Source of the DNA: Spirochaetota bacterium
GTDB taxonomy: Bacteria; Spirochaetota; UBA4802; UBA5550
Length of the DNA stretch: 64,000 nt
NCBI GenBank assembly: GCA_963663865.1
Contig: OY760686.1
Location: 640,001-704,000, forward strand
Direction of reading: 5' to 3'
Under the pieces are notes generated by a model. The model saw only the letters and a list, made by a program, of their open reading frames with translations, did no database searches and had not been told where the DNA came from. The position numbers and the translations under genes are program-made. Positions 1,250 to 3,259 of this stretch are shown piece by piece. Within the stretch, counting starts at the first letter, position 1, and each line of letters starts with the position of its first letter.

Positions 1250-3259
1250 ATGGCAAAGAATAAAGAAAACAATAATAACGAACCAATAGAAAAGCAGCTC
1301 TGGAAATCAGCTGACAAACTCAGAAAAAACATAGACGCTGCTGAATACAAACATGTTGTTCTCGGTTTAATATTCCTGAAATACATTTCAGACGCTTTCG
1401 AAGAACTGCATTCAAAATTGAAAAGCGGTAAAGGCGATTATGCCGGAGCAGACCCGGAAGATAAAGACGAATACAAAGCGGAAAATGTCTTCTTCGTGCC
1501 GGAGCTTGCCCGCTGGTCGTATCTGCAATCAAAAGCTAAACTTCCCACCATCGGCAAAGAAGTAGACAACGCTATGGATGCCATTGAGAAGGAAAACCCT
1601 TCTCTCAAAGATGTGCTTCCTAAAGTCTACGCCCGGGGTAACCTTGACCCGACAAGTCTCGGAGGTCTTATTGACCTGATTGCTAAAATCGCCCTTGGCG
1701 ACGCAAAAGCTCGCAGTGCTGATGTACTTGGTCATGTTTTTGAATATTTTCTCGGAGAATTCGCCCTTGCCGAAGGTAAAAAGGGAGGCCAGTTCTATAC
1801 TCCCAGAAGTGTTGTCGAGCTCCTGGTCGAGATGCTTGAGCCCTTCAAGGGCCGGGTCTTTGATCCCTGTTGCGGTTCGGGTGGTATGTTCGTGCAGTCG
1901 GAGAAGTTCGTAGCGGAACATCGGGGTCGCCTTGATGACATTGCCATTTATGGGCAGGAGAGCAACCAGACGACCTGGCGCTTGTGCAAGATGAATCTTG
2001 CGATCCGGGGTATCGACAGTTCCATGGTCAAGTGGAACAACGAGGGTTCGTTTCTGAACGACGCGCACAAGGATCTCAAGGCGGACTTCATTATCGCGAA
2101 TCCCCCGTTCAATGTAAGCGACTGGTCGGGCGAGTTGTTGCGAAACGACGGCCGCTGGAAGTTCGGTACTCCTCCGGCGGGGAATGCGAACTATGCCTGG
2201 ATTCAGCATTTTCTTTATCATTTGAGTCCCAGCGGTATTGCCGGTTTTGTTTTGGCAAAAGGTTCTCTTACCTCTAAAAGTTCCGGTGAAGGAGAAATCC
2301 GCAAGGCATTGGTTGAAGCGAGGCTGGTTGACTGTATTGTTAATCTTCCGGCAAAGCTGTTTTTGAATACGCAGATTCCGGCGAGTCTGTGGTTTTTAAG
2401 AAGAGCCCCTCAGTCCCCTAAAGGGGATGAAAGAAATGAGATTCTTTTTATTGATGCCCGCAACCAAGGTCATTTGATCAATAGACGCACACGGGAACTT
2501 TCACATGAAGATATCCAGAAGATTGCCTCAACCTATCGTGCATGGAAGGCCCCCCGGCCCCCTGAAGGGGGAGTAGAAGGGAAGAAGCCTTCGGTGTTAC
2601 ATTCTGCGGATACGGCTTTTTATAGACAGCTTGAACAAAAAGCAAAGGAAATGCGTGCTCATCCAACAGAAGCCGAACGCTTGCTATGGGAGAAATTGAG
2701 CAACAAACAGCTTGGTGTCAAATTCAGGCAACAGCATGTGATCAATAAGTTTGTCGTAGATTTTTGTTCTATTGAAAAAGCACTGGTTATTGAAGTTGAT
2801 GGAGAAATACATGATACACAGAGAGAAAGAGATGAGGAAAGAACCAAAATACTTCAGGATGAAGGATATTCAATAATCAGATTAAAGAATAATGAAGTGA
2901 TCAATAATATTGAAAAGGTCATTGATAGTATCAAAAAATCTCTCCAAGCCCCCCGGCCCCCTGAAGGGGGAGACAAAAAAGGGAGTGATGCTCCCATGTC
3001 CCCTTTAGGGGATTTAGGGGCCTATGAAGATATAAAAGGTTTCTGCAACTCAGCGTCGATAGAACGTGTCAGGGAACTTGATTATGTGCTCACTCCCGGA
3101 AGATATGTCGGTCTTCCGGATGATGAGGATGACTTTGATTTCAAGGAGCGGTTTACTGCTCTTAAGCAGGAATTCATGGAGCAGTTGGAAGAAGAGAAGA
3201 TACTGAACAACCTGATACTTGAGAATCTTGAAAAGGTGAAATTTACACCAGGCTCATGA
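1250..3259 (+). CDS. hsdM: Type I R-M methyltransferase subunit with in-frame DUF559 insertion
   Basis: [10 protein letters not shown]-terminus, [14 protein letters not shown] (SAM binding), NPPF catalytic motif, [11 protein letters not shown] 1250 preceded by GGAG. Confidence 0.97.
2549..3022 (+). mobile_element. In-frame DUF559 (Vsr-like endonuclease) insert bounded by family A repeats
   Basis: Encodes [42 protein letters not shown]; identical 25-bp direct repeats at 2549-2573 and 2948-2972 and an inverted copy at 2999-3021; interrupts the HsdM segment [13 protein letters not shown]. Confidence 0.85.

Follow-up and report, generated by a model that had tools for sequence, protein, structure and literature searches.

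The hsdM gene and its in-frame insert

The window analysed here is a stretch of 64,000 nucleotides (nt) from a Spirochaetota bacterium (assembly GCA_963663865.1, contig OY760686.1, positions 640,001 to 704,000), and all positions given below are counted from its first letter. It carries the gene hsdM for the methylase subunit of a type I restriction-modification (R-M) system, and this gene is interrupted, without loss of the reading frame, by a segment coding for a DUF559/Vsr-like nuclease. The insert, the G+C-rich hairpin units at its ends and its relatives in other host genes are the subject of this paper. In hsdM, the following features were identified:

1235..3259, plus strand: hsdM, the host gene, from the list of open reading frames (ORFs); type I R-M methylase subunit with the Pfam families HsdM_N, N6_Mtase and DUF559
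2405..2429, plus strand: solo hairpin unit, GCCCC-N5-CCCC TAAA GGGG, with the peptide APQSPKGD, at a position of HsdM designated site B
2549..2573, plus strand: left terminal unit, a C-rich arm and the hairpin CCCCC TGAA GGGGG, with the peptide APRPPEGG; the exact 25-mer
2574..2947, plus strand: coding body of the DUF559/Vsr-like nuclease, in which a conserved N-terminal helix comes before the Pfam match (about 2627-2944)
2948..2972, plus strand: second exact copy of the 25-mer, an extra unit between the nuclease and the right end
2990..3022, minus strand: right terminal unit, the hairpin CCCC TTTA GGGG followed by ATTTA and GGGGCC, with the peptide SPLGDLGA

The hsdM ORF codes for 674 amino acids (aa), and the start of the orthologs corresponds to the ATG at 1250. 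In the product, residues 465-570 match DUF559 with an E value of 6.5e-32 (110.1 bits, cut-off 20.6), and the insert alone matches the same family (PF04480) with an E value of 2.6e-33 (114.6 bits, cut-off 20.6). The insert comprises 474 nt (2549-3022), equal to 158 codons, contains no stop and causes no frame change within hsdM; it is flanked by ...TYRAWK on the left and by YEDIKGFC... on the right. Its boundaries are correct to about three codons, since orthologs devoid of the insert hold just 2-8 variable residues at this place. The description of a 158-codon in-frame DUF559/Vsr-like insert in HsdM, given in an initial annotation made from the sequence alone, was borne out by the ORF, by Pfam and by these empty orthologs.

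The same annotation placed a 25-bp palindromic repeat at the start of the insert and an inverted copy of the repeat family at the end. The 25-mer GCCCCCCGGCCCCCTGAAGGGGGAG indeed opens the insert (2549-2573) and recurs exactly at 2948-2972, but only 14 of its 25 nt are palindromic (CCCCC-TGAA-GGGGG), the remainder being a C-rich arm. The right end does consist of an inverted unit of the repeat family, which has to be assigned to a sister subfamily (the arm, then C4-TAAA-G4) that is present in forward orientation at 2405-2429 and reversed at 2990-3022. The right-end unit is 91% complementary to the unit at 2405-2427, which had not been listed earlier, and 75% complementary to the unit at 2547-2570. 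The peptide of the left terminal unit recurs at the left junctions of the orthologs in the HsdM alignment, and the right junction peptide KSPLGDLGA is common to the window and the orthologs. A unit at the position of 2948..2972 is present in the orthologs P0005, P0006 and P0020 and absent from P0004, P0008, P0010, P0021 and P0022; in the window, the part from 2948 to 3022 is shaped like a forward-reverse doublet and thereby resembles a miniature inverted-repeat transposable element (MITE).

An in-frame insertion in a conserved gene is what an unusual intein or intron would look like. The insert starts with Ala and ends with Gly-Ala, and the next residue is Tyr (A...A followed by Y), so that neither Cys/Ser/Thr nor His-Asn is found at the junctions; no Hint or intein Pfam family was identified in the insert, and an Rfam scan of the window revealed no intron and no other RNA family. 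The absence of intein-type termini, already noted in the initial annotation, was therewith confirmed. An artefact of assembly is contradicted by the occurrence of the same arrangement in dozens of independent assemblies, and a spliced element or an assembly artefact is accordingly regarded as extremely improbable.

Two further candidates were rejected. A hidden out-of-frame ORF in the insert was dropped, as the other frames hold only two minus-strand ORFs of 62 aa. The base composition is not diagnostic of an insertion: the core of the insert has 36% G+C and the 5' part of hsdM 48%, but hsdS has 36% and hsdR 41%. It may be speculated that an in-frame GTG at 2594, which follows the left hairpin with its purine-rich 3' arm, serves as an internal start.

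The hairpin units in the window

Three more copies of the 25-mer, with two mismatches each, were identified on the minus strand at 9394, 10693 and 11062, and no match was obtained in any of 100 dinucleotide shuffles. All units of the family are confined to the region 2400-11500, where they lie within hsdM and hsdR, and none is present in the other approximately 52 kb of the window. The window contains just two other C4..G4 strings, both unrelated. Each orientation of the unit uses one reading frame, the forward orientation giving AP.(S/P)P(E/K)G(G/D) and the reverse orientation (S/P)P(L/S)G(G/D).GA. In hsdR, the second host gene of the locus, the following features were identified:

10572..13916, plus strand: hsdR, with the Pfam families HSDR_N, SWI2_SNF2 and T1RH-like_C
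9394..9418, minus strand: unit in a duplicated 5' fragment of hsdR, a copy of the 10693 unit by segmental duplication
10688..10717, minus strand: solo unit, in frame, adding 10 aa compared to the closest orthologs
11020..11086, minus strand: two tandem reverse units, the first one degenerate, in frame as SSPLGDRGSDDCETSPPSGGWGA, adding 19 aa compared to the closest orthologs
11444..11471, minus strand: solo unit, in frame as SSPSGDRGA, at the exact site of a full DUF559 domain in the orthologs P0449 and P0497

Empty, filled and footprint alleles

A search with the whole HsdM protein revealed three kinds of proteins: those of about 515 aa without DUF559, those of 640-790 aa with it, and intermediates. 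The empty orthologs are 85-90% identical to the window HsdM across the shared host part, so that the empty-site alleles expected in the initial annotation were found among the closest orthologs. For the alignment, 34 of the 120 listed orthologs were picked by hand. At the site of the window, the empty alleles hold 2-8 variable residues instead of 158. Fifteen filled alleles carry the DUF559 subfamily of the window at the same site, with AP(R/Q)PP(E/K)GG at the left and KSP(L/S)GDLGA at the right junction. In seven alleles, a different DUF559 subfamily with different Pro/Gly junction peptides occupies another loop, after LWF.RR; this second subfamily is present in full length at site B in P0028, P0031, P0033, P0046, P0076, P0107 and P0113, the site at which the window contains the solo unit 2405..2429.

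Two alleles are informative for the ends of the insert. In P0045, APRPPKGG is fused to DLGA at the site of the window, which means that both ends are present and the nuclease is absent. In P0008 (APQPPEGG...SPPSGGRGA), the two ends represent one unit in opposite orientations. In P0003, P0015 and P0024, the unit peptides are tandemly expanded at the junctions, for example as KGDFEKGDLEEDFE... or as repeated KSPLGDLGA..., and therefore the units also multiply locally.

For HsdR, the window protein has 1114 aa compared to 1076-1080 aa in the orthologs. Its three unit sites are missing from orthologs of 92% identity, with additional 10, 19 and 3 aa in the window. At the third site, P0449 and P0497 contain a complete DUF559 domain, with ...STLLTPSLSPSQREG at the left and SLSPSGRDRREGG at the right, where the window reads STLSSPSGDRGA. 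The unit of the window has the same left-junction residues, STL, as these two orthologs, and the solo unit 11444..11471 is probably the footprint of a full element. On the basis of this third hsdR site and of HsdM P0045, at least some solo units are the remains of a deletion of the nuclease between two hairpins. At least two of the solo units, at an HsdM and an hsdR site, look like deletion footprints and not like repeats dispersed in trans.

Other nucleases were also encountered in HsdR. The ortholog P0402 (1173 aa) contains an in-frame GIY-YIG domain after ...SPESY, so that in-frame residence is not restricted to one nuclease fold, and in the ortholog P0421 a third DUF559 subfamily is located at yet another site.

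A phylogenetic tree calculated for the host part of HsdM only (32 rows, 498 columns) distributes the three allele states with 10 changes, and its well-supported branches force at least two changes per site.

The nuclease domain

Among the proteins of the PDB, the insert matches 3hrl, a solved DUF559 protein, with an E value of 1.6e-12, and more weakly, with an E value of 0.0068, the catalytic domain of I-Bth0305I (3r3p), a homing endonuclease of a group I intron. A structural model of the insert, built from a 12-row alignment, has a mean predicted local distance difference test (pLDDT) score of 80.2. In a Foldseek search with this model, 3hrl was retrieved with a template modelling (TM) score of 0.86 (E 3.4e-7) and I-Bth0305I with a TM score of 0.74 (E 1.2e-4), while Vsr (1cw0) is more distant (E 0.058, probability 0.99). 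VSR, DUF559 and 3r3p have been grouped together before by Steczkiewicz et al. 2012 (PMC3424549). Several large-subunit proteins of the mitoribosomes of Toxoplasma and Tetrahymena also match the DUF559 fold of the model (E 0.007-0.03), and DUF559 is also named in a preprint that deals with Plasmodium proteins whose function is unknown.

The residues of the active site (D..E.DG..H..D), namely D71, E82, D84, H88 and D95, are invariant in the alignments and in all 78 of the 78 nuclease copies from the genome loci described below. R98, R111 and N114 are likewise present in 78 of 78 copies; like D71 and D95, they were not part of the pattern used for the genome scan. I-Bth0305I, the prototype of the 'EDxHD' homing family, has an N-terminal region with NUMOD and helix-turn-helix (HTH) elements, according to Taylor et al. 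2011 (PMC3239194). For the insert, Pfam returned only DUF559 and MTES_1575, and in the model just two helices precede the core. When the whole HsdM is modelled, the domain has pLDDT values of 76-90 and lies between linkers with values below 50; the overall model is poor (mean pLDDT 56), probably due to a shallow alignment of nearly identical sequences.

Host proteins and genome loci

An exhaustive, profile-free search of 1.84 billion representative proteins with the insert gave 21,094 matches with E <= 0.001, the best 150 of which were surveyed for their hosts. Among these 150, 66 proteins have a length of at least 230 aa with the match in their interior, and in 52 of the 66 another Pfam family surrounds DUF559; the junctions of these long proteins also consist of Pro/Gly-rich peptides. 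The 52 hosts include HsdM, HsdS, Eco57I-like and N6_N4 methylases, type ISP enzymes, leucyl-tRNA synthetase (LeuRS), an IleRS-like synthetase, TGT, an RsmI-like methylase, TsaE, TsaD, a radical-SAM/TRAM enzyme, RecJ, RecO, UvrB, XseA, MetH, SpoIIE phosphatases, TatD, Ham1, MazG, Csm4, sugar epimerases and aminotransferases. The proposal of the initial annotation that the insert is a repeat-bounded DUF559 module carried as a protein-domain passenger is supported.

On the genome level, a 12-sequence alignment was used to scan a species-level genome collection. From 602 pattern matches, 584 of which encode a relative of the nuclease, the best 80 loci were kept, and the window's own genome is not among them. 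Most of them are from Bacteroidota; Leptospirales, Spirochaetaceae, Marithrix, Patescibacteria, Saccharibacteria and a Candidatus Nitrotoga bin are also represented. The top-ranking locus, L001, contains an HsdM whose insert shows 64% identity. In 66 of the 80 loci, the match is embedded in a frame without stops that continues for at least 100 aa on both sides, and in 71 loci it does so on at least one side. The flanking parts were clustered by BLAST, and one representative per cluster was named by Pfam. The largest clusters are class-I aminoacyl-tRNA synthetases (39 loci, with LeuRS as the representative) and MetH (19 loci, at three different sites), followed by a MeaB/methylmalonyl-CoA-mutase fusion (5), HsdM (2), RecJ (2), sugar epimerases/dehydratases (2) and RecG (1); about ten copies are free-standing or broken. 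Two members of the synthetase cluster have the domain at a different site and resemble another class-I synthetase, as judged by eye from the junction peptides.

The range of hosts bears on the possibility that HsdM has recruited the nuclease as an accessory domain for R-M or repair, for example in a Vsr-type role coupled to methylation, with the repeats serving as linkers only. Such a role is suggested by the frequency of R-M genes among the hosts (HsdM, HsdS, HsdR, Eco57I-like and type ISP enzymes), and Vsr proper works beside a methyltransferase (PMC3384342). However, the same lineage is found in LeuRS, MetH, RecJ, TGT, TsaD and others, where this role is inapplicable; in HsdM itself, the domain is absent from the closest orthologs and occupies two different loops, and the palindromic ends are a feature of the DNA, contrary to a codon choice for linkers. 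Domestication is therefore considered very improbable.

Inverted hairpin ends and nuclease-free doublets

In the 80 loci, hairpins were counted by the pattern C4+-loop-G4+ in flanks of 165 nt on each side of the nuclease. By this strict pattern, which misses the palindromes of other subfamilies, 98 hairpins were identified in the flanks (3.73 per kb) and 58 elsewhere in the loci (0.077 per kb), which corresponds to an about 48-fold higher density beside the nuclease. The association of the repeat with the nuclease lineage across genomes, as expected from the initial annotation, is thereby established. A hairpin is present at the left in 40 loci, at the right in 50 and at both ends in 33. The loops are A-rich in 42 of 42 left-flank hairpins and T-rich in 49 of 56 right-flank hairpins; elsewhere they are split 24 to 28. 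Where both ends carry a hairpin, the order is A-rich, then T-rich in 30 of 33 loci. The left and right ends are reverse complements of each other and therefore constitute terminal inverted repeats, a feature belonging to the DNA rather than to any linker peptide. Exact inverted matches of at least 12 nt were obtained for 23 of 78 cognate flank pairs, compared to 16 of 386 non-cognate pairs and none of 71 shifted controls. Such end units were also identified at free-standing copies (L002, L003, L055 and L070).

The regular orientation of the hairpins has to be considered for the alternative that the parts are independent, in which tiny units, mobile or prone to slippage, would pile up in tolerant loops and DUF559 would have been trapped between two of them, or fused once and kept. 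The number of units does vary at the same junction among orthologs, up to the tandem expansions in P0003, P0015 and P0024, and the same loops of HsdR and HsdM take up unrelated short insertions in different orthologs. The strict orientation in 30 of 33 loci, compared to the even split elsewhere, would nevertheless require the same accident repeatedly, in at least seven clusters of host genes and in free-standing copies, and independent parts appear quite unlikely for this reason.

Away from the nuclease, 52 hairpins were counted in the 80 loci, 2.8 times the 18.4 expected from shuffles. Nine nuclease-free doublets of 57-115 nt were identified there; all nine are arranged forward-then-reverse with arms and hairpins like those at the nuclease ends, and three lie inside frames of at least 150 aa. 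With two terminal inverted repeats, a short non-coding core and ends like those of the enzyme-carrying element, the doublets have the structure of MITEs. A Pseudanabaena plasmid contains a free-standing DUF559 gene with two forward-reverse doublets behind it. This cyanobacterial doublet is present at 7 places on its plasmid and has matches in 14 plasmid records; two of the matches lie within annotated coding sequences, one for a non-ribosomal peptide synthetase and one for a pentapeptide-repeat protein.

Phylogeny and signs of movement

In Maribacter, LeuRS exists in filled and empty forms. The segment between NWIGRS and FTTRPDT has 163-164 aa in M. caenipelagi, M. algicola and others, and 31 aa in M. 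forsetii, M. dokdonensis, M. litoralis, M. stanieri and others, with an identity of about 80-85% of the host part to the filled query. Within the named species M. dokdonensis, the length of LeuRS ranges from 944 to 1042 aa (P0322, P0351 and others); this variation is due to a segment of about 100 aa in another region, after ...TSAFVY, and does not concern the DUF559 site.

A tree of 78 nuclease segments revealed that the copies group by host site, with 16 changes compared to 38.6 in shuffles. At the LeuRS site, at least two nuclease lineages are present. The RecJ copies nest with LeuRS copies of Patescibacteria and Saccharibacteria (support 97), the MetH site-2 group nests within the site-1 copies of Flavobacterium (support 93), and the nuclease of the window is placed together with two copies from HsdM and a free-standing one (support 95). 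The tree fits a site-faithful spread as well as inheritance with occasional jumps, homing and an old insertion followed by loss being inseparable on this basis. For the Candidatus Nitrotoga bin, labelled as a betaproteobacterium, a MetH with DUF559 (L071) nests among the Flavobacterium copies, which reflects either a mis-binned contig or a transfer.

The loop class of the hairpins tracks the nuclease tree, with 14 changes compared to 21.7 in shuffles, and none of 300 shuffles gave a value as low. This is a prediction of the co-inheritance of hairpins and nuclease as one unit, and shared descent alone can suffice to explain it, too.

The hairpins, the doublets and the loop class have to be seen in the light of the initial annotation, in which the insert was interpreted as similar to a REPtron, a repetitive extragenic palindromic (REP) element unit with its REP-associated tyrosine transposase (RAYT). 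In the strict form of this interpretation, DUF559 would be a structure-specific enzyme that recognises the units and moves both them and itself by cutting there, in the role of RAYT, and the solo units and doublets would have been spread in trans as non-autonomous elements. The inverted units at the nuclease genes, the surplus of hairpins and the nine doublets away from the nuclease, and the dispersal of the cyanobacterial doublet are in favour of it, as is the loop class, with the same reservation about shared descent. However, a PD-(D/E)XK hydrolase has no known route for strand transfer on its own. The units in the window are absent beyond the R-M genes, and two solo sites coincide with the sites of full elements in orthologs, as fits footprints. 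In addition, the nuclease is present at many sites and in many hosts, unlike the single-copy RAYTs reported in PMC3116915 and bioRxiv 10.1101/2022.05.22.493013. What holds of the analogy is the anatomy, with its inverted ends and nuclease-free doublets as in the REPIN/RAYT system; the enzyme is of the PD-(D/E)XK and not of the HUH type. A REPtron-like mechanism appears possible and rather unlikely, roughly a one-in-four matter.

A model for the element

It is suggested that the insert is a copy of a selfish nuclease element which resides in frame, is not spliced and gives rise to MITE-like derivatives, a reading for which we estimate a probability of about 0.58. The anatomy of the insert, its in-frame state, the empty, filled and footprint alleles, the presence at multiple sites and in multiple hosts, the inverted orientation of the ends, and the fold together with the conserved active-site residues have been shown. 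With its many sites and host genes, the nuclease behaves as an autonomous element and not as a single-copy domesticated gene.

According to this model, the element would consist of a small gene for a Vsr-like (DUF559) nuclease between inverted G+C-rich hairpin units as terminal inverted repeats. It would not be spliced and would survive within genes because it keeps their frame and contains no stop, in surface loops and inter-domain linkers, so that the host protein would be produced with the nuclease as an extra surface domain. The translated units (AP.PP[EK]GG at the left, SP[LS]G[GD].GA at the right) would act as flexible Pro/Gly linkers. The nuclease would provide the drive: it may nick or cut an allele without the insert, or else a solo hairpin unit, and with a filled copy as template for the repair the element would be spread in a homing-like manner, with occasional jumps to new sites. 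Nuclease-initiated gene conversion is regarded as the likeliest drive, at the confidence of the model as a whole (about 0.58), because the nuclease is kin to a proven homing endonuclease. Internal deletion between the terminal hairpins would yield nuclease-free doublets or single units of MITE type, and these products would persist as in-frame footprints of 8-20 residues, for example in hsdM (2405) and hsdR of the window.

Several points weigh against this model. The hairpins are short, and as single-stranded DNA they fold no better than shuffles (z -0.3 to -1.6); since the folding energy is at the level of shuffles, the case for hairpins is based on their recurrence and arrangement. The 80 loci are the best-scoring relatives of one nuclease and not a random sample of DUF559, and the matches on plasmids (37 records) are mostly free-standing genes. 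For E82, D84 and H88, the conservation in 78 of 78 copies was in part imposed by the search, as these residues belonged to one scan pattern. A lone Vsr-like domain of about 110 aa without a recognisable DNA-binding module leaves specificity for a long site unexplained. The clustering by LeuRS and MetH site in Bacteroidota would be equally expected for old, vertically inherited insertions, in which case the patchiness could be due to loss, and the tree of the HsdM host part is poorly resolved, with 4 of 29 inner branches starred. Moreover, the activity of the nuclease, its cleavage target, the route of insertion and the transfer are inferred.

Other features of the R-M island

Around the insert and the units, the R-M island contains further nuclease-like and defence genes. 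A GIY-YIG nuclease ORF at 3256-3615 (Pfam E 3.4e-19) begins in the region of the hsdM stop. At its 3' end and in the following spacer (3560-3709), a separate repeat family, GTGGCTTCGAGRGCCTCAGCCACCG..., is present, with three copies in direct orientation and one inverted pair of 88% complementarity, so that this ORF represents a second small nuclease with palindromic repeats of its own in the R-M operon. Between hsdM and hsdS, the ORF 3659-4282 has a weak HNH match (E 4e-4) that with 20.9 bits just misses the cut-off of 21.4; it would, if the match is genuine, be a third nuclease-like gene in the operon.

Between hsdS and hsdR, at 5519-8086, a protein with a TIR domain and a STAND NTPase (TIR_2, nSTAND_NTPase4) is encoded, which is probably a separate defence gene within the island. 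The 5' end of hsdR (MTTSKITES...) is present in three copies, at about 8115, 9273 and 10572 (window 8097-10700). The copies are separated by two genes of the RhuM family, one at 8260-9024, which is truncated by a frameshift into 8960-9256, and one at 9518-10585; this suggests that RhuM cassettes have repeatedly entered the beginning of hsdR and that the target was duplicated in the process. Just 3' of hsdR, on the minus strand at 14208-14842, a pair of a PIN-domain toxin and a Phd/YefM antitoxin was identified. Upstream of hsdM, small A+T-rich ORFs are separated by G+C-rich stretches of imperfect inverted symmetry (160-350 and 1020-1240), which possibly resemble the boundaries of integron cassettes (attC); the Rfam scan matched nothing there.

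Comparison to known systems

The hairpin units have parallels in two other repeat systems. In fungal mitochondria, GC clusters and double-hairpin elements have reportedly been observed beside mobile endonuclease ORFs by Paquin, Laforest and Lang. As in the case presented here, G+C-rich hairpins are found there together with in-frame mobile endonuclease ORFs in A+T-rich genomes; the differences are that the fungal clusters are organellar and that their nucleases are of the GIY-YIG or LAGLIDADG type. The second parallel is given by the Rickettsia palindromic elements, said to have been described by Ogata et al. in 2000, which have a length of about 100-150 bp and are not known to encode an enzyme. 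Like these, the hsdR units and three of the nine doublets are palindromic repeats that lie in frame in coding genes, and the hsdR units are absent from orthologs. The units described here have a length of 25-115 nt and a parent form that carries a nuclease. The Rickettsia palindromic elements are also mentioned in PMC10969869 and PMC1779305.

To the EDxHD or Vsr-like homing endonucleases, of which I-Bth0305I is an example (PMC3239194, PMC3384342 and PMC2677866), the element is alike in the catalytic fold, in the active-site residues and in its selfish life in conserved genes. In comparison to I-Bth0305I, it has no NUMOD/HTH region and no splicing element, its product forms a portion of the host protein, and it is bounded by inverted hairpin repeats. 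EDxHD nucleases reside in introns, in inteins or else as stand-alone genes; the copy of the window resides in frame in hsdM instead, and some of its relatives are free-standing. With inteins that contain homing endonuclease domains, it shares the in-frame location in essential genes, at sites that are conserved, along with a patchy distribution; in contrast to these, it has neither a Hint domain nor catalytic junction residues, so that protein splicing does not occur.

The REPtron (PMC3116915 and others) likewise consists of a nuclease gene flanked by inverted hairpin repeats, with nuclease-free inverted doublets elsewhere. Its RAYT is an HUH tyrosine transposase that is single-copy and vertically inherited, whereas the enzyme of the element is a PD-(D/E)XK hydrolase present at many sites. 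REPs are extragenic and of high copy number, whereas the units described here are often in frame in coding sequences and of low copy number near the loci (0.077 per kb). For the ShiLan domain of actinophage methylases, reported in 2025 (PMC11855218), a nuclease-encoding, unspliced and homing-like insertion in frame with a DNA methylase gene has been described. There, an HNH nuclease has a start of its own in a frame other than that of the methylase, and the abstract reports no hairpin ends; here, the nuclease has another fold, uses the frame of the host and is bounded by inverted hairpin ends.

We place the element with known kinds, a homing nuclease element and a MITE, and regard the EDxHD family, REPIN/RAYT, the Rickettsia palindromic elements and ShiLan as the nearest systems. 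In a search of full-text literature, outside of which most subscription journals and supplements lie, no account of DUF559/Vsr-like nucleases as in-frame, repeat-bounded insertions was found; a prior description is possible. The unspliced in-frame nuclease element seems to represent a means of persistence of selfish DNA that has not been described.

Implications

It has been reported that 'DUF559 domain-containing protein' is enriched (odds ratio 14.3) among predicted targets of programmed inversion (PMC9881135). The inverted hairpin ends might mimic inversion signals, which may explain this enrichment. For genome annotation, it is relevant that some of the LeuRS proteins with such an insert are labelled 'DUF559 domain-containing protein' at NCBI. 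For protein engineering, the insertion sites mark loops which tolerate about 130 extra residues, and the element provides a compact nuclease with a possibly structure- or palindrome-directed specificity.

A wider reading, which we hold tentatively and at slightly less than even odds, is that besides introns and inteins a third widespread way of residing in essential genes exists. The element would live there as an unspliced in-frame domain, with hairpins that are at once DNA ends and peptide linkers, and it would decay into tiny palindromic repeats that stay in frame, which would make it a parent for insertions like those of Rickettsia; DUF559 would then largely be the nuclease of this class. 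If the model is correct, a role as the nuclease of a mobile element would be assigned to a very large family of unknown function, and short in-frame palindromic repeats would gain a source element. LeuRS, MetH, RecJ and the subunits of type I R-M systems would then, in some lineages, routinely bear a foreign and probably active nuclease domain.

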